A stretch of 64,000 nucleotides of DNA from Myxococcota bacterium. Its GTDB lineage: Bacteria; Myxococcota_A; Polyangia; Nannocystales; Nannocystaceae. Both the position numbers and the translations under genes were made by a program. Under the pieces are notes generated by a model. It searched no databases. It had not been told where the DNA came from and saw only the letters and a list, made by a program, of their open reading frames with translations. Shown here in pieces: positions 19,550 through 35,209 of this stretch (within the stretch, counting starts at the first letter, position 1; each line of letters starts with the position of its first letter). The stretch spans positions 384,001 through 448,000 of the forward strand of contig JBCCHT010000002.1 in assembly GCA_039028615.1 (NCBI GenBank), written 5' to 3'.

Positions 19550-20629
19550 TCAGGCGCTCGGATCGGCGCTGGGCGACGCGCCGCCCTTGCCCTCGGGATC
19601 GAAGGCCTCGAGCTCGGCGCTGATCTTCTCCAAGAATCGACGCTTCTCGTGGAACGGCAGGAACGCGCTCTTGAAGCCATTGAGGATCACCTGGTGCAGG
19701 TCCTCGAGCGAAAAACCCATCTCGCTGTGCATCAGGTGCATCTCCTCGGACACCGTCGTATCGGTGATCAGCCGGTTGTCGGTGTTCACGGTGACGCGAG
19801 CGCCGAGGTTGAAGTAAAGGCGCATCGGGTGCGAGCCGAGGCCCTCGACCGCCCCCGTCTGCACGTTGGACTTCGGGCAGCACTCGAGCGGGATCCGATG
19901 ATCGACCACGTAGTGCAGCAGATCACCATCCTCGCGCAGCCGGCAGCCATGGCCGATGCGGTGGGCCCCACAAATGTGCAGGGCCTGGGCGATCGACGGG
20001 GGGCCGTAGGCCTCGCCCGCGTGAATCGTGACGTTGATGTTGTTTTGACGCACCAGCTGAAACGCGTCCTGGTGCTCCTTGGCGGGGTGGTCGTCCTCGG
20101 CCCCGGCCAGATCGAAGCCGACCACACCTCGGTTTTTGTAGGCGACCACCAGCTCGGCCATCTCGAGCGATGACGCGGGCGAGATGTTTCGAATGCCGCA
20201 GACGATGATGCGACTGACGATGCCGTACTTCAGCTCGGCGTCGTACAGGCCCTTGAGCACCGTCTCCACCACCGTGGTCAGGCGCAACCCTTGCCGGGTG
20301 TGCAGCATGGGGGCGTAGCGCACCTCCATGTAGCGAACGTTCTCACGTGCGGCGTCCTCGGCGAGCTCGAAGGCGGCCCGGTACAGGGCTTCCCGCGTCT
20401 GCAGCACCTGCAGCGTGACTCCGAAGGCCTCTAGATACTTGACCAGGCTGCCCGTGTTCTCGCCGATGTGCATCGCCGCCCGCAGACCTGCGACATCGGA
20501 GGCGGGCAGTTCGATGTTTTGCTCGCGCGCCAGGTCGAGCACCGTTTCGAGCCGCATCGAGCCATCGAGGTGGACGTGCAGATCGGTCTTGGGAAGGCGC
20601 TGGAAGACCGAAAGGGGCAGCGAATTCAT
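19550..20629 (-). CDS. add: Adenosine deaminase
   Basis: LPKTDLHVHLDGS, GFDLAGAE, TIHAGEA, RIGHG, VNTDN metal and catalytic motifs. Confidence 0.95.
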   Translation of the reverse strand: MNSLPLSVFQRLPKTDLHVHLDGSMRLETVLDLAREQNIELPASDVAGLRAAMHIGENTGSLVKYLEAFGVTLQVLQTREALYRAAFELAEDAARENVRYMEVRYAPMLHTRQGLRLTTVVETVLKGLYDAELKYGIVSRIIVCGIRNISPASSLEMAELVVAYKNRGVVGFDLAGAEDDHPAKEHQDAFQLVRQNNINVTIHAGEAYGPPSIAQALHICGAHRIGHGCRLREDGDLLHYVVDHRIPLECCPKSNVQTGAVEGLGSHPMRLYFNLGARVTVNTDNRLITDTTVSEEMHLMHSEMGFSLEDLHQVILNGFKSAFLPFHEKRRFLEKISAELEAFDPEGKGGASPSADPSA

Positions 20630-20825: not shown

Positions 20826-21548
20826 TTGTTCTCGCCCACCTCCGAGGGTTCCCCTGCTCCTCGGTCGCGCTCTTGGCTGCGCGGCGTGGGATCGATCGCT
20901 CTTTTGGGGTGCGCGACTGCGAACATCGGCGGCTGCGTTCGCGAGCCCCATGCGTGCGAGCTTCAGCTCGAGCGAGGCGACGTCATCATCACCGAGATTC
21001 GGGGCCCCCAAGACGGCACCGACACCCGCGGCGAATGGTTCGAGCTTTACAACGCCACCGACGCGATGGTCGACCTGTTCGGCCTGCGCGGTGAGCTCGT
21101 GAACCTGCGGGGCTCCATCGAGATCAACTTCATCGTGCGCGAGTCGTTGCCCGTGGGCCCCGGCGAGTACGTGGTGCTCGGCAGCCTCGCCAATGCGCCC
21201 CCCGAGGTCGACTACAGCTTCAACGACGACTTCGCGGTCGAGCCCCGTCTCGAGGACTCCGACGGCACGCTCGTGGTGCCCGTCGGCGAAGACAGCGACC
21301 CGCGCGAGCTGTTCTCCAACGCCCGCGTCGAGCTGTTCGCCTGCGACCAGCTGATCGAGACGGTCATCTACGAGCAGCTGCCGGCCGCGGGCACCTTCAG
21401 CTTCGACGGCGCGCGCAGCCCGAGCGCCGACGACAACGACGACCTGAGTCACTGGTGCACCAACGACGCCGAGGCGCCCGAAGACGGACCCCAAACCGAG
21501 ATCGGACTGCCCGGGTCTCCGGGGGAGGCCAACCCGCCATGTCCCTGA
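20826..21548 (+). CDS. Lamin-tail-domain (LTD) lipoprotein
   Basis: GDVIITEIRGP...GEWFELYNAT...PGEYVVLG...GSPGEAN; hydrophobic leader with Cys; TTG start uncertain. Confidence 0.82.
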   Translation: MFSPTSEGSPAPRSRSWLRGVGSIALLGCATANIGGCVREPHACELQLERGDVIITEIRGPQDGTDTRGEWFELYNATDAMVDLFGLRGELVNLRGSIEINFIVRESLPVGPGEYVVLGSLANAPPEVDYSFNDDFAVEPRLEDSDGTLVVPVGEDSDPRELFSNARVELFACDQLIETVIYEQLPAAGTFSFDGARSPSADDNDDLSHWCTNDAEAPEDGPQTEIGLPGSPGEANPPCP

Positions 21549-22858
21549 CCTCGGTGAAATCCCTGGTGGCCGGCTGCGGCCTCGTGCTGCTCGGCTCCTG
21601 CACTCCGCGGGGCACGGTCCACTACGACCGCACCAAGCTGGCCGAGAGCCTCGCCAACGAGCAGAGCGACTCGGGCCTCGTCGTCGGCGAGTTCGTGCTC
21701 GCCAGCCCCGCGGTGGTCGATGGCGACACGATCAAGGTGGTCGGCATCGAGGGCACCCTGCGCCTGCTCGGCATCGACACCGAAGAGACCTTCAAGAGCG
21801 ACAAGGACCGCCGCGCCTACGACGACGGCTTCGAGCAGTACCTCGCCAAGAAGCAAGAGGGCCACGACCGACCCATCAAGGCGGCAACGCCCCTGGGCAT
21901 GGACGCCAAACACTGGGCCGAGGAGTTCTTCGAGGGCATCCGCACCGTTCGGCTCGAGCGCGACCATCCCAAGGAGCTGCGCGGTCGCTACGGACGCCTG
22001 CTGACCTACGTCATGGTCGAGAAGGACGGCGAGTGGCTCAACTACAACGTCGAGTCCGTGCGCGCGGGGATGAGCCCCTACTTCTCGAAGTACGGCTACT
22101 CGCGACGCTTCCACGACGAGTTCGTGCAGGCCCAAGAAGAAGCCCGCGCCGCCAAGCGAGGCATCTGGGACCCCGCGCTCGAGCACTACCCCGACTATGA
22201 CCTGCGGCTGCGCTGGTGGGACGCCCGCGCCGAGGTCATCGCCCAATTCGAAGAGCAGGGCCAAGGCCGCGAGGACTGGGTCGTGCTGACCAACTGGGAT
22301 TCCCTCGATCGGCTCGCCGGGCTCGAGGGGCGCGAGGTCACCGTGCTCGCCACCGTGGGCGACATCTACCCCTCCAAGGGCAAGGGCCCCGCCCGGGTGA
22401 TGCTCTCGCGTCGCATGTTCAGCGATTTCCCGCTGATCTTCTTCGACGACGAGGTGCTCGAGACCTGCGGCGTCGACAAGGCCCGCGGCGAGTTCGTGCA
22501 GGTGCGCGGCACCGTGAGCCGCTACGAGTTCCGCTCCAAGCGCAAGCGCGCCCGTAAGAAGGACGCGAACGAGCAGCCGCCCTCGCAGCTCCAGATGCAG
22601 ATCCGCCGACCGGAGCAGATCGCATTCATCGACACGCGGCCGGCCCAGATCGCGGGGGGGTATGCCCCGCGGATGCCGGAGCCCGCGCCCGAGCCGGTGG
22701 TCGACGACGCGCCCCCGCCCGTGCCCGATCCGACCCAAGCCGCCCCCACGGGCGCCGAGCCTCCGCCGCCTCCGCCCGTCGAGCCCGACTCGAGCGTGCA
22801 GCAAGCCCCCGTCGGCGACGACTCGCCCGAACAATCTCCGCCCGCAGTGGCCCCCTAG
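21539..22858 (+). CDS. Thermonuclease (SNase/NucH-like) lipoprotein with extra OB-fold-like domain and Pro-rich tail
   Basis: Lipobox LLGSC; VVDGDTI, LRLLGIDTEE, RYGRLLTYV, ARAAKRGIW; start overlaps the upstream stop. Confidence 0.9.
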   Translation: MSLTSVKSLVAGCGLVLLGSCTPRGTVHYDRTKLAESLANEQSDSGLVVGEFVLASPAVVDGDTIKVVGIEGTLRLLGIDTEETFKSDKDRRAYDDGFEQYLAKKQEGHDRPIKAATPLGMDAKHWAEEFFEGIRTVRLERDHPKELRGRYGRLLTYVMVEKDGEWLNYNVESVRAGMSPYFSKYGYSRRFHDEFVQAQEEARAAKRGIWDPALEHYPDYDLRLRWWDARAEVIAQFEEQGQGREDWVVLTNWDSLDRLAGLEGREVTVLATVGDIYPSKGKGPARVMLSRRMFSDFPLIFFDDEVLETCGVDKARGEFVQVRGTVSRYEFRSKRKRARKKDANEQPPSQLQMQIRRPEQIAFIDTRPAQIAGGYAPRMPEPAPEPVVDDAPPPVPDPTQAAPTGAEPPPPPPVEPDSSVQQAPVGDDSPEQSPPAVAP

Positions 22859-22889: not shown

Positions 22890-25706
22890 ATGTCGAAACA
22901 TCCCATTGTTCGAGCCCTGCCCTGGGCGCTGGTCATGGGCTCCGCTTTGCCCGCGTGTGGCGGCGACGACCTCGCCCGCCCGCCGGGGGCCTGCGAGTCC
23001 GGACTGCTCGTCGGCGACCTCGTGATCACCGAGATCATGGCCGACCCCCCGGGCGCCGACTCCGGCCGGGAGTGGTTCGAGATCTACAACGCCAGCGCCA
23101 CCGAGTTCGACCTGCGCGGGCTGGTGTTGCTGCACAGCCGCGAGGACTCGACCGACGCCAACGTGCACGAGATCGGCCGCAGCCTGACGCTGGGGCCCGA
23201 CGACTACGCGGTGGTCGGCGGCCTGCTCGACGACGAAGACGTGCTCGCCGTCGTGCCCTACATCGACTACGGCTACGGGGGCGACCTCGGCGACATGCGC
23301 AACAGCGCGGGGCGCTTGGTCGTGGCCTGCGGGGACGAGATCATCGACGAGGCCCTCTACAACGACCCCACCCCGAATCACTCGCGCAGCTTCACGGGGG
23401 ACCGCGCCCCCGATGCCAACGCCAACGACGACCTGAGCTTGTGGTGCGACTCGAGCTCGGAGATCGACGCCGAGGGCTTCGGCACCCCCGGGGCCTCCAA
23501 CGACATCTGCGTGGGCACGGGCGGGCCCGTCTCCTGCATCGACAACGGCGTGCTGCGAGAGGCCCGAGCCCCCGAGGCGGGCGACCTGGTCATCACCGAG
23601 GTGCTCTCCGACCCGGCCGCCGCCGAGGACGACAGCGCCGAATGGTTCGAGGTGCGGGTCAACGCCGACATCGACCTCAACGGCCTGGCCATCGGCAAGC
23701 AGTCGAGCTTCGAAGACGCCGAGCCCGTGACCGGCAACGACTGCGTCCCGGCCTTGGCCGGCACCCGCCTGGTGTTTGCACGCAGCGCCGACTCCGAGCT
23801 CAACGGCGGGCTCCCCAACGTCGACATCGAGTTCGGCTTCTCGCTCAATCAGTCCGACAACCAGGTCGTGCTCAGCTACGGCAACCTGCTGGTCGACACC
23901 TTCCCCTACGGGAGCTCGTCGCCCGGGGTGGCCCACAACCTCGATCCCGACTTCGAGAATACCGACGACAACGACGACGAGCGCTACCACTGCGACGCGA
24001 CGTCGACCTACGGAGCCGGCGATTTCGGCACGCCCGGGGCGCCCAATACCGAGTGCGAGATTCCACCGCCCGAGGGCCAGTGCCTCGACGGGGAGTCCTT
24101 CCGCGACATCGTCCGGCCGCAGCCGGGTGACCTGCTGGTCACCGAGATCATGGCCAACCCCGAGGCGGCCGGCGAAGAGAGCGAGAGCGAGTGGTTCGAG
24201 CTGCGCGCCACCGCCGACTTCGACCTCAACGGGCTCGAGCTCGGCACCGAGGAGGGCAAGCCCCGCGACGTCGTCGAGGCCACCGAGTGCCTGAGCATGG
24301 GCGCGGGGGACCACGTGGTGGTCGCTCGCGAGACGGACCCCGCCATCAACGGTGGGCTCCCGGTCGTCGACGCCACCTTCGGCTTCGCGCTGACCAACTC
24401 CAACGGTGCGCTGTGGATCGGAAGCGGCGGCACCACCCTCGACCTGGTGACCTGGGCCTCCGTGCCCGCAGGCGCCTCCCGCAGCCTCGACGCCAGCATC
24501 ACCGATCCGGGCGCCAACGACCCGGACGAGGTCTGGTGTGAGGGCCTCGAGCCCTTCGGCGATGGCGACCTCGGCACGCCGGGCGCGGAGAACCCCGTGT
24601 GCGGCGGCATCCCGACCGGCACCTGCCTCGACGGCGGCCGCGAGCGCGACCTGGTCCGGCCCGCCGTGGGGGAGCTGGTCATCACCGAGCTGATGCCCAA
24701 CCCGGCCGCGGTCAACGACTCCGAGGGCGAGTGGTTCGAGCTGCTGGCCACGGCGAACGTCGACCTCAACGGGCTGCGCTTCGGGGACGACCCCGCCGAC
24801 GCACCCAGCCGCGACAACAGCCTGCCCGCCGGGGGCGACTGCATCAGCGTCAGCGCAGGTGAACGGGTCATCCTCGCGCGCAACGCCGACACCATGGCCA
24901 ACGGCGGCCTGCCCGAGGTCGTCGGCACCTTCAGCTTCGGCCTGGTCAACGGCGGCGGGGCCCTGTTCGTCGGCATGGGCGACGAGGTCATCGACGACAT
25001 CACCTGGACGGGCAGCGCGGCGGGAGTCGCCCTGACCCTCGACCCCATGGCCGAGGACGCGGTCTCCAACGACGACCCGGCCAACTTCTGCGCCGCCACC
25101 GAGCCCTACGGCGATGGTGACCTGGGCAGCCCGGGCGCGCAGGGAGCCGCCTGCGGCGGTGGGGGCGGAGGAGACGGCATGTGCGACGACGGGGGCATGC
25201 CCCGCGCCATCGTGGCCCCCACCGTGGGCGACCTGGTCATCACCGAGGTCATGCCCAACCCGAGCGCGGTCGCGGATTCCTCCGGCGAGTGGTTCGAGGT
25301 CCTGGTCACCGCCGACGTCGACCTCAACGGCCTCGAATTCGGCGACACCCCGGGCGCTCCCGATGGGACCCTCGCCTCGGGTGGAGCCTGCATCGCGGTG
25401 ACCACCGGCCAGCGCCTGGTGTTCGCACGCAATGCCGACGCCATGGCCAACGGGGGCCTGCCCGCGGTCGACCAGACCTTCAGCTTCGACCTCGTCAACG
25501 GCGGTGACGACCTCTTCGTCGGCGTCGACGGCATGGTGCTCGACCAGATCTCCTGGTCGAGCAGCAGCGCGGGCACCAGCATCTCGCTCGACCCCGCCGC
25601 CGAGGACGTCGTGGCCAACGACGATGCCGCCAACTTCTGCGCGGGCGTCGACCCCTACGGCGACGGAGACCTGGGCACCCCCGGTTCGGTCAACCCCGCG
25701 TGCTGA
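22890..25706 (+). CDS. Large acidic surface lipoprotein with five tandem lamin-tail domains
   Basis: Lipobox ALPAC; five G(D/E)L(V/L)(I/V)TE..(D/N)P...EWFE...G(T/S)PG repeats joined by Cys-containing linkers; gagga Shine-Dalgarno before ATG 22890. Confidence 0.88.
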   Translation: MSKHPIVRALPWALVMGSALPACGGDDLARPPGACESGLLVGDLVITEIMADPPGADSGREWFEIYNASATEFDLRGLVLLHSREDSTDANVHEIGRSLTLGPDDYAVVGGLLDDEDVLAVVPYIDYGYGGDLGDMRNSAGRLVVACGDEIIDEALYNDPTPNHSRSFTGDRAPDANANDDLSLWCDSSSEIDAEGFGTPGASNDICVGTGGPVSCIDNGVLREARAPEAGDLVITEVLSDPAAAEDDSAEWFEVRVNADIDLNGLAIGKQSSFEDAEPVTGNDCVPALAGTRLVFARSADSELNGGLPNVDIEFGFSLNQSDNQVVLSYGNLLVDTFPYGSSSPGVAHNLDPDFENTDDNDDERYHCDATSTYGAGDFGTPGAPNTECEIPPPEGQCLDGESFRDIVRPQPGDLLVTEIMANPEAAGEESESEWFELRATADFDLNGLELGTEEGKPRDVVEATECLSMGAGDHVVVARETDPAINGGLPVVDATFGFALTNSNGALWIGSGGTTLDLVTWASVPAGASRSLDASITDPGANDPDEVWCEGLEPFGDGDLGTPGAENPVCGGIPTGTCLDGGRERDLVRPAVGELVITELMPNPAAVNDSEGEWFELLATANVDLNGLRFGDDPADAPSRDNSLPAGGDCISVSAGERVILARNADTMANGGLPEVVGTFSFGLVNGGGALFVGMGDEVIDDITWTGSAAGVALTLDPMAEDAVSNDDPANFCAATEPYGDGDLGSPGAQGAACGGGGGGDGMCDDGGMPRAIVAPTVGDLVITEVMPNPSAVADSSGEWFEVLVTADVDLNGLEFGDTPGAPDGTLASGGACIAVTTGQRLVFARNADAMANGGLPAVDQTFSFDLVNGGDDLFVGVDGMVLDQISWSSSSAGTSISLDPAAEDVVANDDAANFCAGVDPYGDGDLGTPGSVNPAC

Positions 25707-26194
25707 TGCGTTCACCGACCAAGATCATGGGGGCCGGCCTGGTGCTCGGGCTGGCCCTGGGAGTGGCCTGCAGTGACGGGCCCGAGTGTGGTCCCACCGA
25801 GGCCGTCGTGGCGCGGGTCATCGATGGCGACACCATCGAGCTCGAGTCCGGGGAGCGGGTGCGCTACCTGCTGGTCGACACGCCCGAGCTCAGCGGCGGG
25901 GGCGAGTGCTACGGGCTCGAGGCGGCCGAGTTCAACCGCTCCGCCGTCGAGGGCGAGACGGTCACGCTGTCGTACGACACCGAGTGCACCGACGGCTTCG
26001 ATCGCCTGCTCGCCTATGTGCAGCTGCCCAGCGGGCGCCTCGTCAACGAGGTCCTGCTCGAGCGCGGCCTGGCCTGCGTGCTGCACATTCCGCCCAACGG
26101 TGAAGATCGCGTCGATGAGTTTCGCGCCATCGAGGCTCAGGCCCGCGCGGGCCAGAACGGCCTGTGGGGCATGTGCACGGAGGCGCCGTGCTGA
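25706..26194 (+). CDS. Thermonuclease (SNase) family lipoprotein
   Basis: Lipobox GVAC; VIDGDTIEL, VRYLLVDTPE, FDRLLAYV, ARAGQNGLW; TGATG stop/start coupling. Confidence 0.92.
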   Translation: MRSPTKIMGAGLVLGLALGVACSDGPECGPTEAVVARVIDGDTIELESGERVRYLLVDTPELSGGGECYGLEAAEFNRSAVEGETVTLSYDTECTDGFDRLLAYVQLPSGRLVNEVLLERGLACVLHIPPNGEDRVDEFRAIEAQARAGQNGLWGMCTEAPC

Positions 26195-28458
26195 GCAGGC
26201 TCGGTCGAGGGCTCGCGCTGTCCGCCCTGCTGCTGGGCGCTGCGTGGCCCATGACCGCCCGCGCCGTCGAGTACGAGGTCTTCGTCGACGTCGATGACGA
26301 AGAGGACCTCAACGAGCTGCTGCTCACCGAGCAGGTAAGCGAGACCACCTACGAGACCCTCGTGGAGCTCATGCGTCGGGGCACCGACCTCAACCGAGCC
26401 TCCCGCGAAGACCTCTACGCGCTGCCCAACCTGACCTACGACGAGGTCGATGCGATCTTGGCGTATCGCGACGACGCGGGGCGCATCGCCGACCCGGCGG
26501 ACCTGGTGGTGGCCAACGTCATCAGCCGACGCAAGCTCGCCGCCATCGCCTCGTTCCTGCTCGTGCCCGATGCCAAGGGCTCACGCGGGGCCGTGCACGG
26601 CCTGGTCCGCTACCGGATGACCTACGTCGCCCAGGACCCGCGCGTGCCTCCCATGGCCCTGCAGGCGCGCGTGCGGGCGTTCGGCAACCTCACCGTGGGC
26701 GGGGCCGCCGTGCTCGAGCCCCAGCTGCTCGCGCCAGTGCGCTGGGACCCCAACCGCGCCGCCCTGGTGGCCGAGGGCGACCAGGTGCGCCCCCGGGTGC
26801 CCAAGCTCTTCGCCCAGTGGGAGACCGACCGCTGGGGCGTCATCGCGGGTACCTACCGCATCGGCTTCGGCCAGCGCCTCACCTTCGACAACAGCCGCCG
26901 CTACACGCCGAACGGCTTCTACCTCGACGACGCGCTCATCGCTCGCTACGACCTGACCCGCCTGTGTCGCGAGTCCGCGGGCGAGCTGCGGGTCTCCCCC
27001 TGCGACGACGACGATCGCCGCGTCGCCCCGTCGTTTCGCTTCAGCCCCGGCCTGACCGGTGTGGCGGGCGGAGCCAAGAAGCTGCCGCTGCCCGTGGGGT
27101 GGTTTCAGGCCTACGGGTTCTGGTCGATGCAGACGCACGACCTGTACCAGTACCGAATCTACGAGCGCGACCGGTGTGAAGACCCGCGCAGCGACGACGC
27201 CTCGTGCGAGTCGCCCGCGCTGTACAACCCCACCGAAGGCACGCTCGATCCCTCGAGTCGGCACGTGTTCCGCACGCTGCCCCGCACCGTCGACCTCATC
27301 ACGCAGGGTGCCAACCTCGGTTGGTACAACGACTCGCGAACCCACGTCGGCGTGACCGGCTACGGCACCATTCCCCGCTGGCGCATCGACGGCGCGGCTC
27401 TCGACTTCAAGCCGGCCGAGCGCTTCCCCCGGGGCGGTGCCTTCGGGGCGGTGGGGGCCGACTTTTCGTGGGGCTACCGCTGGGCCGACGTCTTCGGCGA
27501 GGTCTCGCGCAGCTTCGACGGCACCGATCCCTCGCAGGGCGGCGGGGGTGGCTTCGCCGGCATCCTGCGGCACACCGCCTCGTGGAACGACCAGGAGCTC
27601 GAGGTCAGCGCGCGCTACTACGACTCGCGCTACTCCAACCCCTACTCCCGTCCCATCTCCGCGCGCGACCGCTTCGAGGGCAACCAGGCCCGCGACGAGG
27701 CGGGCGGGCGGGTCCGCTACACCGCCCTGCTCGCGCAGAAGGTCAGCCTGCGGACCTTCGCCGACTTCTGGGTGCGTCCCTCCACCCTCGAGCCGCGCAC
27801 TCGCGTCTACGCCCGCGCCGACGTCGATGCCACCAAGTGGTGGCGTCCCGGCCTGTGGCTCGAGTACCAGAACAACGACCTGGGGCGCCCCAACTTCACC
27901 GATTGCCGCGACGTCTCCATCGAGGCCGGTGACGTGCTGGGGCTGCCCGACGAGGCGATCATCTGCGGAGGCCAGCGCGTGCAGCTGACCGCGCGCTCGC
28001 GCTTCGCCCCCATCCGTCGGCTGTACTTCACGCTCCAGTATCGCCACGAGTTCCAGAACTCGCTGTTCGCCGACACCCAGTTCTCCCGTTCGGGCGCCAC
28101 CGACGACGACATCGACTTCGAGACCTTCGACATCTTCGACGAGGCCGACCTGGCGCGGCTGCAGGCCAATAACCGCCTGCGCCAGGACACCAACGCCTTC
28201 GTCCAGGTCGTCGCCAAGCCCATCGATCCGCTCCGCCTGCGGGCGCGGGTGCGGTGGTTTTGGGAGGACATCACCGACAACTCGCGCCTCGAGCACTCGG
28301 TGTGGACCTACTTCGAGGCGCAGTACAAGATTCGCCCCTGGGCGGTGCCGATGATCCGGTACAGCATCTTCGCCTACGTCGATCGCCGCGACAGCACCGC
28401 CACCCGCTCGCCGAACCCCGAACACTGGATCGCGCTGCAGTTCCAGTCGCGGTTCTGA
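26188..28458 (+). CDS. ComEA-like helix-hairpin-helix domain fused to a probable outer-membrane beta-barrel
   Basis: Signal peptide ending TARA; DLNRASREDLYALPNLTYDEVDAILAYRDDAG HhH; many amphipathic aromatic-rich strands; C-terminal HWIALQFQSRF with terminal Phe. Confidence 0.8.
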   Translation: MLSRLGRGLALSALLLGAAWPMTARAVEYEVFVDVDDEEDLNELLLTEQVSETTYETLVELMRRGTDLNRASREDLYALPNLTYDEVDAILAYRDDAGRIADPADLVVANVISRRKLAAIASFLLVPDAKGSRGAVHGLVRYRMTYVAQDPRVPPMALQARVRAFGNLTVGGAAVLEPQLLAPVRWDPNRAALVAEGDQVRPRVPKLFAQWETDRWGVIAGTYRIGFGQRLTFDNSRRYTPNGFYLDDALIARYDLTRLCRESAGELRVSPCDDDDRRVAPSFRFSPGLTGVAGGAKKLPLPVGWFQAYGFWSMQTHDLYQYRIYERDRCEDPRSDDASCESPALYNPTEGTLDPSSRHVFRTLPRTVDLITQGANLGWYNDSRTHVGVTGYGTIPRWRIDGAALDFKPAERFPRGGAFGAVGADFSWGYRWADVFGEVSRSFDGTDPSQGGGGGFAGILRHTASWNDQELEVSARYYDSRYSNPYSRPISARDRFEGNQARDEAGGRVRYTALLAQKVSLRTFADFWVRPSTLEPRTRVYARADVDATKWWRPGLWLEYQNNDLGRPNFTDCRDVSIEAGDVLGLPDEAIICGGQRVQLTARSRFAPIRRLYFTLQYRHEFQNSLFADTQFSRSGATDDDIDFETFDIFDEADLARLQANNRLRQDTNAFVQVVAKPIDPLRLRARVRWFWEDITDNSRLEHSVWTYFEAQYKIRPWAVPMIRYSIFAYVDRRDSTATRSPNPEHWIALQFQSRF

Positions 28459-28626: not shown

Positions 28627-29829
28627 ATGGGCGTGAACAAGGCAGCAGCACTCGGGGCAGGCATGGCGATGACGATGCTGGCGACCGGCTGCGTCGAGCG
28701 CCTCATCTACGACCACGTCTGCGGCAACGGCATCGTCACCCCGGGCGAGCTGTGCCTCGGCCTGGGGGATCGCCGCGAGGTGGTGGTCGACACCCTCGCG
28801 CCGCTGTCGTTGCGCACGGGCGACTTCAACGGGGACCTGAACGCCGACCTCATGGTCTTGGGCACCGAGCCCTCGGGCATCGTCGCGGCGCGGCTGTGGC
28901 TCGGTGACGGCGACGGTGGGCTCTCCCCTCCCCTCGACCCCGGCGTCGGGGGGTGCAGTGCTCATCCCGTGGCGGGCTCGCTCGGCGACGACACGGCCGA
29001 CGACCTGCTCGTCGATGACTGTGGGCCTTCGGTCTCGTTGTTTCGCGGCACCAGCAGCGGCACCTTCCAGTCCGCGCTGACGGTGGTCACCGGGGTCGCG
29101 ACCCACGGCTCCGGCATGATCGACCTCGACGACGATGGCCTGCACGACGTCGTCATCTTCGGCTCGCTGCCCGAGGACCAGGGCGGCCTCGCGCTGGCCG
29201 TGGCCCAGCAGACCTCGCCCGGCGTGTTCCGGCCCCCTTCGATCAGCAACGTCGAAGGCGGCCCGCTCGGCCTCGAGCCCAACGGATGGAGCATGCTCGA
29301 CTACGACGGCGACCCGCACCGCGACGTCATGCTCGTGCAGTCGGATCTCCCGGGGGGCATCGCCATCAGCCGGGGGCTGGACAACTTCAACTTCAGCGCG
29401 CCCGAGCCGGTGGGTCCGCCCGGGCTTCAGGTCAGCTGGGCCGCCGTGCGAGACCTCGATGGCGACGGCACCGAAGAGGTGCTCGCCGCCAGCTACGACG
29501 CCCAAGCGCTCATCGTGCTCGACTTCGACGACGGGCTGCTCGTGGAGCGACGCCGTAGCTCGATCCCTGGCCTGCAGCCCAGCCCCATCGCTCTCGACGA
29601 CGTCGACGGCAACGGCACGCTCGACCTCGTCCGCGTCGAATCGGGCGTGACCAACCTCGACGTCTGGCAGGGGCAGGAGGACGGGCGCTTCACCGGGCCC
29701 ACCTCGATCGATCTCGACGCCCCCATCGATCAGCTCGCCCTGACCGACCTCGACAACGACGGGGTGCTCGACATCGTGGCCGGGAGCTTCGGTGAGTCCC
29801 GGGTCCGGGTGCTGCTCAGCGATCCCTGA
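28627..29829 (+). CDS. FG-GAP/VCBS repeat (beta-propeller) lipoprotein
   Basis: Lipobox LATGC; repeated GDFNGDLNADL, DLDDDGLHDV, DLDGDGTEEV, DVDGNGTLDL, DLDNDGVLDI. Confidence 0.88.
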   Translation: MGVNKAAALGAGMAMTMLATGCVERLIYDHVCGNGIVTPGELCLGLGDRREVVVDTLAPLSLRTGDFNGDLNADLMVLGTEPSGIVAARLWLGDGDGGLSPPLDPGVGGCSAHPVAGSLGDDTADDLLVDDCGPSVSLFRGTSSGTFQSALTVVTGVATHGSGMIDLDDDGLHDVVIFGSLPEDQGGLALAVAQQTSPGVFRPPSISNVEGGPLGLEPNGWSMLDYDGDPHRDVMLVQSDLPGGIAISRGLDNFNFSAPEPVGPPGLQVSWAAVRDLDGDGTEEVLAASYDAQALIVLDFDDGLLVERRRSSIPGLQPSPIALDDVDGNGTLDLVRVESGVTNLDVWQGQEDGRFTGPTSIDLDAPIDQLALTDLDNDGVLDIVAGSFGESRVRVLLSDP

Positions 29830-29985: not shown

Positions 29986-31008
29986 ATGAGTGGAGGGGCA
30001 CGGGCCTGGGTCGGAGCGACCATCGTGGCCCTGGGTCTCGGCATCGCGACGGGAGTCGGGTGCGGGCGCTCGCCCGTATGGCTGCCCTGCGATGGGCTTG
30101 AGACGGTCGAGAACGTGCCCGCGCTCAGCTGCGATCACCCCGCGTGTGCCTCGGCGACCTCGCTGTACCTCGATATCGGGGCCGATAACGTGCTCATCGT
30201 GCAGGACCGCTCGTGTTCGATGGCCGAGCTCATCGATGGGCGCAACAAGTGGTCCCGGGCCGTCGAGGCGCTGGTGGGCGTGCTGACCGACCCGCGCTCG
30301 ACCACCGTGCGATGGGGGCTCTCGCTGTTTCCCGACGGCAACAACGACGGGATCCAGGGACCCATCATCGTGCCGGTCGCGGCCGGCCAGAGCGGGACGA
30401 TCGCCGCCCTGCTGACCAACGCGCTGGACCGCAACGATCGAAACCACCCGCAGCAACCCGGCGAGGGCTGCTTCACCAACCTGGCGGACGCGCTCGATCA
30501 GGCGGCCGACCCCCGCGTCTTCTCCGGCCTCGACGGCAGCAGCCACCTGTTGCTGATCACCGATGGCTTCGCGCGACACGGCGGCGAGGTTGCCTCCAGC
30601 CTGGTGAGCATCCTGCAAGAACTCCACGATGAGGGCACCCCCACCTTCGTGGTGGGCTTCGGCGCGCGGGTCAGTACCAACACGCTCAATGCCCTCGCCC
30701 GCGCGGGTGGGGTGCCGGCCTCGGCCAGCACGGGCTACTACGACGCGGGCCTCGAGGACCTCAGCGGCGCCCTGCTCGAGGTCGTGCAGGGGCTCCGCTG
30801 CCGCCACCGCATCGACCTGCCGCCCGAGGACGTGTCCCGCCTGCTGGTGCGATGGGCCGACGACACCTTCATCCCCGCCGCCCCCAACGGGGGAGACGGG
30901 TGGCGCTACGACGTGGAGCTGGGCGCCCTGGTGTTCTCGGGCTGGGCCTGCGAGCAGCTGCTCGTCGGCGACGTCACGGGGATCGAGCTCGACCTCGACT
31001 GCGGCTAG
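29986..31008 (+). CDS. von Willebrand factor A domain lipoprotein (CglB-like myxobacterial vWA family)
   Basis: Lipobox GVGC; MIDAS DRSCS; LLITDG; TFVVGFG...LNALARAGG; Cys-containing C-terminal GWRYD...ACEQL module. Confidence 0.82.
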   Translation: MSGGARAWVGATIVALGLGIATGVGCGRSPVWLPCDGLETVENVPALSCDHPACASATSLYLDIGADNVLIVQDRSCSMAELIDGRNKWSRAVEALVGVLTDPRSTTVRWGLSLFPDGNNDGIQGPIIVPVAAGQSGTIAALLTNALDRNDRNHPQQPGEGCFTNLADALDQAADPRVFSGLDGSSHLLLITDGFARHGGEVASSLVSILQELHDEGTPTFVVGFGARVSTNTLNALARAGGVPASASTGYYDAGLEDLSGALLEVVQGLRCRHRIDLPPEDVSRLLVRWADDTFIPAAPNGGDGWRYDVELGALVFSGWACEQLLVGDVTGIELDLDCG

Positions 31009-32224: not shown

Positions 32225-32430
32225 GGGACCCCTGACTCTACTGCACAGTTCCTACCGCCAGCGCGAGCGCCCAGGTGCTACGACGCGGGGTGCTGAACCC
32301 CCTACGCCACAGCCCCGCGTTCGATCACCGAAATTGCATTCGACGAACGACCGTTGCGCTCGCGCGCACGGATTTGCGCACTTCTTGATGTGGATCCGCC
32401 CCCATGCGAAACCCTCCCGGGGATCTACGC

Positions 32431-33558
32431 GTGTCGAACGGCCGTCCATCAGCACAGCCCACGGTTTTACTGGCAGGAGGCGGCACGGGGGGCCACATCT
32501 ACCCCAACGTCGGCATCGTCGAGGCCCTACGGGCGATTCGCCCCGAGGTTCGCGTGCGCTTCTTGGTGTCCTCGCGACCGGGTGACGCCAAGATCATGAA
32601 CAACCTGGGCGAGGATTGGACGCCGAGCCCGGTCCGGCCGCTGCCCACGCTACGGCGCCCCTGGGAGGCGCTGCCCTTCGCTCGAGCCTGGCGCCGCGGC
32701 ACGGCCCAGGTCCGCCGACTCATCGCCGAACACCAGATCGCAGCGGTGGTCGCCACGGGCGGCTTCGTCTCCGGTCCCGCCATCGCCGTCGCCGCCAGCC
32801 GTGGCCTGCCGCGCGCCATGGTGAACCTGGACGGAGTCCCCGGCGCCGCCAACCGCCTGCTGGTGCGCCGCTGCTCGCAGGTCTTCACCGCCTATCCCTC
32901 GCCCAAGCTGCCGCAGGCGGAGGTCATCGGCCTGCCGCTGCGTACCGCTTCGGTGGGCGCCCCCGAGCGCACCGAGGCCCGACGGGCGCTCGACCTGCCG
33001 CCCGAGCGCCCGCTTCTGTTCGTGACCGGGGCGACCCACGGCGCCACCTCGATCATCGAGACGATGATGGCCCTGGCCAAGCGCGACGACTTCCGCCGCG
33101 CCGTCGAGCCCTGGCAGATCCTCCATCAGTGTGGAACCTACGACGTGGCCAAGCTCCAGCGGGCCTACGACGACGCGGGGATCCAAGCCCGGGCGGTCGA
33201 CTATCTGAGCGCGATGGGCCAAGCGTGGGCCGCCGCCGACATCGCATTGAGCCGAGCCGGAGCGGGCAGCGTGGCCGAGGCGTGGGCGAACGCCACCCCC
33301 ACCGTGTTCGTGCCGAACCCCTACCACCGCGATCAGCACCAGCGACTCAACGCCGAGCCGATGGCCGAGGGAGGCGCCGCGCTGATTCGAAGCGACGCCA
33401 TCGCTCCCGAGCGCAACGCGGATGACTGGGGTCCCGTGTTGCGGGAGCTTTTGGGTGATGACGAGCGTCGAGACGCGATGCGTCGCGCGGGCCGTGACAG
33501 CTGTCCTCCCGCCGGGGCTGCCGCCGTGGCGCAGTGGATCGACCGCGTCCTTCCCTGA
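32431..33558 (+). CDS. murG: MurG-like GT28 glycosyltransferase (stand-alone, outside the dcw cluster)
   Basis: AGGGTGGHIYP, TGGFVSGP, PGAANR, SRAGAGSVAE, HQRLNA. Confidence 0.85.
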   Translation: MSNGRPSAQPTVLLAGGGTGGHIYPNVGIVEALRAIRPEVRVRFLVSSRPGDAKIMNNLGEDWTPSPVRPLPTLRRPWEALPFARAWRRGTAQVRRLIAEHQIAAVVATGGFVSGPAIAVAASRGLPRAMVNLDGVPGAANRLLVRRCSQVFTAYPSPKLPQAEVIGLPLRTASVGAPERTEARRALDLPPERPLLFVTGATHGATSIIETMMALAKRDDFRRAVEPWQILHQCGTYDVAKLQRAYDDAGIQARAVDYLSAMGQAWAAADIALSRAGAGSVAEAWANATPTVFVPNPYHRDQHQRLNAEPMAEGGAALIRSDAIAPERNADDWGPVLRELLGDDERRDAMRRAGRDSCPPAGAAAVAQWIDRVLP

Positions 33559-34642: not shown

Positions 34643-35209
34643 TCAGTCCTTGGCGTAGACCTTGGGGTCGAGCACGCCGATGTAGGGCAGGTTGCGGTAC
34701 ACCCCGGCGTAGTCGAGCCCGTAGCCCACCACGAACGCGTTCGGGCACACGAAGCCGCGCCAGTCGACCTCGATGTTCTGCGTGCGAGTCTCTTGCTTGT
34801 CGAGGAACGCACAGACCTCGATCGAGGCCGGCTTGCGGGTCTCCAGCGCCTCCGTCAGGTAGCGCAGGGTCAAGCCGGTGTCGATGATGTCCTCGACCAG
34901 CAGCACGTGCCGCCCCTCGATGGGCTGGTTCAGATCCTTGATGAACCGCACCACGCCGGACGACTTGGTGCCGTCGCCATACGAAGACACGGACATGAAG
35001 TCGACCTCGAGCTCGATGTCCATCGCCCGCACCAGGTCGGCGATGAAGGGGAAGCACCCGTTGAGGATGCCCACCACCAGCGGCTTGCGATCGGCGTAGT
35101 GATCGGCCAACGCCTTGCCCATCTCGGTCACCTTGGCGGCGATGTCTTCGGCGGAGAACAGGACCTCGGCGATCGAGGAACCGAGCAGGGAGTCGGGCGG
35201 CGTGCTCAT
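34643..35209 (-). CDS. hpt: Hypoxanthine phosphoribosyltransferase
   Basis: VSSYGDGTKSSG, VLLVEDIIDTGLTL PRPP motif, FVVGYGLDY...YRNLPYIG. Confidence 0.97.
   Translation of the reverse strand: MSTPPDSLLGSSIAEVLFSAEDIAAKVTEMGKALADHYADRKPLVVGILNGCFPFIADLVRAMDIELEVDFMSVSSYGDGTKSSGVVRFIKDLNQPIEGRHVLLVEDIIDTGLTLRYLTEALETRKPASIEVCAFLDKQETRTQNIEVDWRGFVCPNAFVVGYGLDYAGVYRNLPYIGVLDPKVYAKD

Follow-up and report, generated by a model that had tools for sequence, protein, structure and literature searches.

Several described systems resemble parts of the locus that we report here. In the archaeon Haloferax volcanii the lipoprotein Hvo_1477, which combines a staphylococcal nuclease (SNase) domain with a lamin-tail domain (LTD), is needed for growth on DNA as a phosphorus source (PMC3929857, PMC5118699). 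In Bacteroides thetaiotaomicron ddbABCDEF encode nucleases together with a transporter of the outer membrane, in which DdbC is TonB-dependent and has the DUF5689 protein DdbD as its partner (10.1101/2025.03.18.642099). Regarding natural transformation, the candidate barrel RA0C_RS04915 and the helix-hairpin-helix (HhH) protein RA0C_RS02645 are both essential in Riemerella anatipestifer (PMC8459023). The HhH protein PGN_0421 is essential in Porphyromonas gingivalis, for which the outer-membrane step of DNA uptake is stated to be unknown (PMC11532111). In Vibrio cholerae ComEA, K63A reduces transformation by a factor of about 250, whereas cells with K63E no longer transform and those with G60V or G60E are non-transformable (PMC3879209); Geobacillus ComEA K166A does not bind DNA (PMC9747964). 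Here we describe a gene for a 756-aa protein that joins a ComEA-fold HhH domain to a predicted 24-strand outer-membrane beta-barrel, found in a window of 64,000 nucleotides from a Myxococcota bacterium (assembly GCA_039028615.1, contig JBCCHT010000002.1, positions 384,001 to 448,000). We put at roughly 50% the probability that this protein is a channel in the outer membrane through which the cell takes in, as food, nucleic acid cut by nucleases, where transport is what we infer.

The five-gene cluster that ends with the barrel gene shares with Hvo_1477 the same two domain types in lipoprotein form; the latter, however, is archaeal, is one fused protein and has no outer membrane or barrel beside it. 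The Ddb system and the R. anatipestifer pair RA0C_RS04915/04920 follow the same logic as the present cluster, in which exported nucleases are combined with accessory lipoproteins and a single transporter in the outer membrane, and they link DNA feeding with transformation. Unlike the Ddb system, compared by its description, the present cluster has LTD and SNase partners, and none of its five proteins gives a TonB-receptor or DUF5689 match in Pfam. TonB-dependent transporters such as DdbC and SusC consist of a plug and a 22-strand barrel, whereas the N-terminal domain here is a helical HhH, 24 strands are predicted and Pfam matches neither Plug nor TonB receptor models to the barrel protein. 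PGN_0421, with a reported ComEA match at aa 94-165 (E 6e-21), looks by its description more like canonical ComEA. RA0C_RS02645 was considered as a family member and is probably not one, being described as periplasmic and with three HhH domains. In the literature searched we found no study of this barrel family (most subscription papers and all supplements were outside the scope, and supplementary screens could name a member), and term look-ups in PMC12378983 and PMC4319957 gave nothing relevant. We consider the family real and unstudied, and regard the cluster as a variant form of DNA-utilisation locus in which the barrel is of a kind not described before. This widespread family routinely carries the label 'ComEA family DNA-binding protein', which its residues do not bear out.

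The barrel protein and its homologues

The gene and the features of its product are the following:
26188 to 28458, + strand, gene of the barrel protein (756 aa, HhH fold and 24-strand beta-barrel; translation, homologue search, AlphaFold2)
26188 to 26265, + strand, predicted Sec/SPI signal peptide, aa 1-26, with an A-x-A site (A-R-A; sequence)
26266 to 26379, + strand, acidic segment, aa 27-64, net charge -11 (AlphaFold2, charge, couplings)
26380 to 26562, + strand, ComEA-fold tandem HhH, aa 65-125, GIG hairpin absent (Pfam, alignment, fold search)
26443 to 26445, + strand, E86, at the position of the DNA-binding lysine (alignment)
26596 to 28455, + strand, predicted 24-strand outer-membrane barrel, aa 137-756, with an Arg-rich inward face and a terminal Phe (AlphaFold2, fold searches, charge, coevolution)
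26866 to 27051, + strand, loop 5/6, aa 227-288, with an FGQRL motif and Cys260-Cys272 (couplings T232-S440, D248-R161, N235-R488)
27622 to 27696, + strand, loop 13/14, aa 479-503, with an NPY motif (couplings Y482-S440, Y482-A457, R495-R323)

The frame is open over 756 codons with zero internal stops, and its GTG start codon, preceded by GGAGG, overlaps the stop of the preceding gene. A scan for promoters and terminators found no sigma-70 site and no convincing terminator 3' of the gene. A preliminary description of this DNA, made from its letters and a list of open reading frames, had listed a signal peptide, an acidic segment, an HhH motif, aromatic-rich strands, paired Cys and a terminal Phe, and all of these are present in the 756-aa product. 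Of 7995 candidates scored in a word-based search, 574 in the full-length range were homologues with E<=0.001, which shows that the features are not due to chance; the top 120 are 666-834 aa long with 85-100% query coverage. Among cluster representatives, 826 matched a profile search with E<=0.001, and 320 had E<=1e-30. The nearest named relative in a tree of 61 rows is Paraliomyxa miuraensis (68% identity). Paraliomyxa, Nannocystis exedens and Plesiocystis pacifica are non-pathogenic carriers that can be cultivated. The genome has one copy of the gene. When PDB sequences were searched with the family profile, only HhH matches of ComEA and EEPD1 type came up, the PLSDB plasmids gave HhH-only matches, and no RNA holder was listed in the RNA runs.

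AlphaFold2, run with 89 sequences, gave a model with a mean predicted local distance difference test (pLDDT) of 84.4 and a predicted template modelling score (pTM) of 0.82. Counted from its DSSP assignment, 24 membrane strands span residues 137-755, and the links between them alternate between 2-5 and 4-62 residues. Aromatic residues make up 13% of aa 134-756, and the last residue is Phe in 284/320 rows. The long loops contain three Cys pairs, each Cys being kept in 253-283 of 274-309 non-gap rows. At the signal-peptide site, 84 of 89 aligned relatives retain A24 and 88 retain A26. Mean-field coevolution over 320 rows (231 effective), which include near-duplicates and overlap the AlphaFold alignment so that the two are not independent, agrees with this topology. 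Among the top 60 coupled pairs, 22 connect adjacent strands and 2 connect strands that are not adjacent. The coupling of 20/24 adjacent strand pairs is higher than the 95th percentile for non-adjacent ones; the closure of strand 24 on strand 1 scores 3.3 against a threshold of 4.0. The probable outer-membrane barrel of the preliminary description is thus supported by the strand count, the neighbour-strand couplings, the signal peptide, the short and long links and the terminal aromatic residue.

The strongest couplings link loops 5/6 and 13/14 to distant strands and to each other, and these loops are therefore predicted to fill part of the lumen. It had been proposed that strand number and lumen charge be obtained from AlphaFold and barrel prediction; together with the 24 strands, this gave a family-mean charge of about +10 at inward-facing strand positions. 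The arginines lie on strands 14-23, and R461, R476, R508, R543, R687 and R724, all inward, are conserved at 90% or more. In sum, the fold is predicted to be a 24-strand, loop-narrowed, basic pore with its N-terminal domain on the periplasmic side.

Neither Foldseek nor VIA-align found a close solved barrel. VIA-align gave Z of 10-14 across 50 rows for porins, VDAC, ushers and TonB receptors alike. The lowest Foldseek E-values belong to large monomeric barrels (FimD/PapC, MtrB, LptD), of which the ushers FimD/PapC also have 24 strands. With 8-12% identity and template modelling (TM) scores of about 0.3-0.4 to the query, this is, however, generic barrel likeness only. Ushers carry an internal plug and C-terminal periplasmic domains. 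Unlike them, the protein has no Pfam usher match, its chain stops at the last strand, and its gene neighbours are LTD and SNase genes instead of pilin and chaperone genes.

The ComEA-fold domain

The sole Pfam match in the barrel protein is HHH_3 at 65-124, with an E-value of 2.3e-6 and a score of 28 bits that just exceeds the cut-off of 27. The NCBIfam ComEA model TIGR01259 scores 14.3 bits, far under its cut-off of 152.35. When aa 27-129 are folded alone, the best fold matches in VIA are ComEA of Thermus (2duy, Z 5.8) and of Geobacillus (8dss, Z 5.6), superposed at a root-mean-square deviation (rmsd) of 2.4-2.8 A over 65 residues; these Z values are modest. The domain has in common with the ComEA proteins of V. 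cholerae, Bacillus subtilis, Geobacillus and Thermus the tandem HhH fold, export and the structural Arg, R94 (R71 in V. cholerae), which is kept in 310/317 rows. It differs from them in being fused to a 620-aa barrel, in lacking the GIG hairpin, in having Glu at the essential lysine and in being acidic. Aligned on Geobacillus ComEA, the hairpin G-I-G reads N-L-T, and the two glycine positions hold Gly in 60/315 and 5/315 rows, the latter being the G60 equivalent. E86 occupies the position of V. cholerae K63 and B. subtilis K164, where D/E is found in 237/315 and K/R in 3/315 non-gap rows. In the Bacteroidota-type relatives described below, the K63 position holds K/R in 0/58 rows and is mostly Gln, in an alignment that slips near residue 94. 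The HhH motif quoted in the preliminary description is hence present, with HHH_3 over its cut-off, although both the GIG hairpin and the DNA-binding lysine are absent, which that description had missed.

The domain has a net charge of -3, and -3 is also the median in the myxobacterial-type and Bacteroidota-type sets. A small ComEA of the same genome (G000:C18:159609-159785) retains GVG, GIG and the lysine and has a net charge of +8, so acidity does not mark the proteome in general. In agreement with these data, the fold is that of ComEA and canonical DNA binding appears unlikely from its residues. The acidic segment has a net charge of -11 (family median -10), and the couplings D36-S122, V35-M62 and D40-A119 tie it to the HhH helices, so that both are predicted to form a single domain with a net charge of -14. 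The mature N-terminus (26266-26298) is conserved, with alternating hydrophobic residues that we take to be loosely like a TonB box, but coevolution packs it on the HhH domain. The N-terminal domain was also considered as a plug of the lumen. Between it and the barrel, 23 pairs reach Z>=5 against 0-2 in three kin-swap nulls; these pairs scatter across many strands, and non-neighbour strand pairs score similarly, a pattern that speaks neither for nor against a plug. By eye, four homologues (P0198, P0238, P0260 and P0261) retain the barrel and have mostly or wholly lost the HhH.

The gene cluster and its conservation

The barrel gene is the last of five same-strand genes, and three of the four junctions overlap. 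The other four, and the gene divergent from them, are:
20826 to 21548, + strand, predicted lipoprotein with a single LTD, which opens the cluster (Pfam LTD at E 5.7e-6, under the cut-off; similar to LTD repeat 1)
21539 to 22858, + strand, large SNase-family nuclease with a lipobox-like Cys and an unassigned C-terminal domain that looks OB-like by eye (Pfam SNase E 4.6e-12)
22890 to 25706, + strand, acidic predicted lipoprotein with five LTD repeats (Pfam LTD E 1.1e-29)
25706 to 26194, + strand, small SNase-family nuclease with a lipobox-like Cys, its stop overlapping the barrel start (Pfam SNase E 5.5e-17)
19550 to 20629, - strand, adenosine deaminase, divergent from the cluster (TIGR01430 over cut-off; placed likewise in 13/80 loci)

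The lipoboxes of the LTD and SNase proteins were read by eye. The nuclease motif D-x-D-T...R...D-T-x-E is intact in 69/72 orthologues of the small SNase and in 52/60 of the large one, whose C-terminal part has no PDB match below E 0.7.

In the genome collection 248 relatives were confirmed, and conservation of the neighbourhood was followed in the best 80 loci. SNase and LTD genes are both found upstream in 58/60 loci whose upstream DNA extends for 6.5 kb or more, and one or the other in 72/76 where it extends for 1.5 kb or more. Five genomes have a barrel locus without LTD or SNase (one being at a contig edge), and in four of them LTD and SNase occur elsewhere. From a sample of 201 genomes of the phylum, 20 divergent loci were fetched and one was dropped; for the resulting 19, a selection of 53 neighbours was put to Pfam. 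An LTD or nuclease gene adjoins the barrel gene, or lies one gene away, in 15/19. The nuclease is of SNase type in 7, of PLD type in 4 and a metallo-beta-lactamase in 1, a variation which suggests that the need to cut is conserved. In one of the divergent genomes a pair of PLD-nuclease and barrel genes (L105:9142-11298, - strand) lies directly downstream of a recD-like helicase gene.

Among the 80 loci, adenosine deaminase is found near the barrel in 13, a CNT nucleoside transporter in 13 and thymidine kinase in 10, and at least one of the three lies upstream in 21 of the 57 loci with a full 8 kb. The link to nucleic acids claimed in the preliminary description is thus supported through the SNase, LTD and salvage neighbours. 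As further observations on salvage, a hypoxanthine phosphoribosyltransferase gene (TIGR01203 over cut-off) lies at 34643-35209 (- strand), 6 kb downstream, and hpt occurs near the barrel in 7/80 loci; together with adenosine deaminase it would complete purine salvage. An amidohydrolase most like 5'-deoxyadenosine deaminase, below cut-off, is found downstream of the barrel in 5/80 loci (L010:7980-9647, - strand, and L014, L015, L018 and L040).

In the phylum sample, where five candidates were scored per genome and misses are possible, 54 genomes matched; after removal of three HhH-only matches (G029, G062 and G182, G029 being Tex by eye), the barrel is found in 51/201 genomes, and L094 was also left out before counts. 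In the genome under study PilQ scores over its cut-off, ComEC and DprA are present once each, and there are two small ComEA-like genes. PilQ over cut-off is found in 45/50 and ComEC in 49/50 barrel-positive genomes, a co-occurrence that neither proves nor excludes independence from the pilus. No match to comEC, dprA or pilQ was found within the 80 close and 19 divergent myxobacterial-type loci. In the PilQ frame (G000:C31:36760-41103, 1448 codons) the secretin is preceded by a very long helical stretch rich in Ala, Lys and Glu, and similarly long PilQ frames occur in several barrel-positive genomes.

Relatives in Bacteroidota

The preliminary description mentioned similar HhH-barrel architectures in Bacteroidota, and we found full-length homologues there, as indicated by HHalign and by the profile score of the barrel alone. 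As a lead, the Atlas placed the barrel alone beside Bacteroidota clusters named 'ComEA family DNA-binding protein' with a score of 0.96. A metagenome scan with a motif gave 120 stretches, 80 of them with flanks, and 58 proteins of 600-780 aa made a Bacteroidota-type profile. On this profile the query scores 77 bits and the barrel alone 45 bits, against 2.6 for the best of 200 shuffles, in a motif-picked set that raises local scores. HHalign of the query with this family gives 99.64% (E 7.6e-25, 549 columns, 18% identity). Ten Bacteroidota-type proteins were looked up and five are in the collection, with three named clusters: Parabacteroides distasonis, Proteiniphilum and Pedobacter. This unstudied family of about 680 aa has in common with the query the full-length homology, the architecture, the FGQxL loop motif and an equally degenerate HhH. 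However, it forms a separate branch (SH-aLRT 99) and its neighbours are a small FadL-like barrel or comEC instead of LTD and SNase genes.

A gene of about 270 aa lies directly upstream of the homologue in 32 of the 63 Bacteroidota-type loci with a protein of at least 600 aa, often overlapping it (e.g. L114:2470-3276). We call its product a FadL-like small barrel from one weak Pfam match among four tested, the likeness being at its start. Three loci (L127, L144 and L145) have homologues of 850-920 aa with two HhH units, lysine-less in the hairpins by eye, followed by a FadL-like gene. A comEC-like gene lies directly downstream in 5/63 loci, four Pfam-confirmed (L138:5369-7453, L149, L153 and L170) and one a fragment (L146), its start being within about 10 bases of the homologue end or overlapping it; L138 clusters with Pedobacter proteins. 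A divergent dprA was found in 1/63. The adjacency of comEC in Bacteroidota is the best evidence for a link with competence.

Discussion

Our favoured reading is that of a scavenging channel. The lipoprotein nucleases, putatively at the cell surface, would cut DNA or RNA outside, and the LTD proteins may capture the substrate or act as a lid. Short pieces would then diffuse through the arginine-lined, loop-narrowed barrel, with breakdown downstream acting as a sink, and deaminase, nucleoside transporter and kinase would salvage the products. The acidic ComEA-fold domain would dock partners or gate the pore instead of ratcheting DNA. It is the nuclease and salvage neighbours that favour feeding over transformation. 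Further support comes from the near-constant SNase and LTD genes, from their presence elsewhere in four of the five genomes with a barrel locus lacking them, from the exchange of nuclease types, from the lack of comEC, dprA or pilQ matches at 99 loci, from the basic inward face and from the couplings of loops 5/6 and 13/14 to distant strands; Hvo_1477 and ddbABCDEF are precedents. In this sense, predatory myxobacteria would have a testable means of drawing phosphorus, nitrogen and nucleosides from the DNA and RNA of their prey.

Several observations weigh against this reading. Ordinary porins could pass nucleotides, so a large pore is not obviously needed, and the lowest Foldseek E-values are those of ushers, which are protein exporters. 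The LTD and SNase proteins are acidic, which disfavours direct DNA binding without cations, and LTD proteins are common where no barrel was detected (123/201 genomes, against 51 with the barrel). Salvage genes are missing from 36 of the 57 loci with full upstream DNA, and they occur only in Nannocystales-type loci, which are kin and not independent events. The immediate neighbours of the Bacteroidota-type homologues include no recognisable LTD or SNase. Finally, R115 in the second HhH is K/R in 164/314 rows.

This barrel is a concrete candidate for the channel by which DNA crosses the outer membrane where no competence pilus takes part, a step that the P. gingivalis paper (PMC11532111) leaves open. 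The preliminary description had proposed a DNA porin made of one chain, in which the HhH would hold the arriving DNA and act as a ratchet that draws it in, with no pilus involved. The ComEA matches 2duy and 8dss of the N-terminal domain, the basic residue often found at R115, and the strongly conserved R73, Y77, Y84 and R94, which could form another binding surface, speak for this model. We consider it the least probable explanation nonetheless, given E86 at the essential lysine (K/R in 3/315 myxobacterial-type and 0/58 Bacteroidota-type rows), the loss of both hairpin glycines and the acidic charge, whose median is the same in both sets. Several relatives (P0198, P0238 and P0260) moreover keep the barrel with most of the HhH apparently lost, and one tethered domain per pore offers one site, while a Brownian ratchet would need many binders along the DNA. 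Transforming DNA might instead pass the barrel as a secretin-independent conduit, with the small soluble ComEA as the ratchet (possibly docked on the acidic ComEA-fold domain), nucleases trimming or nicking DNA in the manner of NucA and EndA, and ComEC completing uptake. The comEC adjacency (four loci and a fragment of 63, one cluster being named Pedobacter, with dprA divergent in one), the presence of ComEC in nearly all barrel-positive genomes, the canonical basic ComEA of this genome and the gap at the outer membrane of P. gingivalis fit such a conduit. Nevertheless, the comEC-linked loci look like close kin, the competence genes searched gave no match at the 99 myxobacterial-type loci, PilQ accompanies the barrel in most genomes, R. 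anatipestifer already has the essential candidate barrel RA0C_RS04915, and a loop-filled lumen would require gating for double-stranded DNA; we judge the conduit unlikely, although it is the foremost of the alternatives.

It is likewise unlikely, in our estimation, that the barrel is a pore for export or display of the cluster lipoproteins, or a sheath holding one of them as LptD holds LptE, with DNA being digested outside and never crossing the barrel. Its strand number equals that of ushers and FimD is the first Foldseek match (E 1.5e-11, with PapC also at the top), but the match is poor in shape (TM 0.33, rmsd 22 A; in VIA Z 13.6, tied with porins and VDAC) and Pfam finds no usher domain. 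A basic lumen facing acidic lipoproteins would suit export, as would the pairing of Bacteroidota homologues with a small FadL-like barrel (32/63). The ComEA fold also occurs in PsbU, and the HhH of one homologue passes the Pfam GspK model; neither PsbU nor GspK is known to bind DNA. Export would, however, leave the comEC adjacency unexplained, and the exchangeable folds of the nearby nucleases also count against it. A cluster that shields the surface with nucleases or remodels biofilm, in which the barrel is merely an anchor or scaffold without a role in transport, would agree with two nucleases having intact catalytic motifs and with a lumen predicted to be largely loop-filled. A 24-strand barrel with conserved inward arginines would yet be costly as an anchor, and salvage genes stand beside it, so we regard this explanation as very improbable.

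Returning to the scavenging channel, a tentative and rather doubtful extension is that HhH-barrels form an undescribed class of outer-membrane nucleic-acid channel without secretin or TonB plug. This class would be common to Myxococcota, where it may feed on prey DNA, and to Bacteroidota, where it may supply the missing outer-membrane step of transformation, and the ancestral ComEA domain would now be an acidic docking or gating module.

Other genes downstream of the barrel

Three further genes follow on the + strand. A predicted lipoprotein with FG-GAP repeats (28627-29829) starts 168 bases downstream of the barrel gene; it is present in 8/80 other loci and probably is not part of the core. 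A VWA-domain protein (29986-31008) has a weak match to the gliding lipoprotein CglB (E 1e-6, far below cut-off). A MurG-like glycosyltransferase (32404-33558), below the TIGR01133 cut-off and away from any cell-division cluster, follows the barrel in 15/80 loci.

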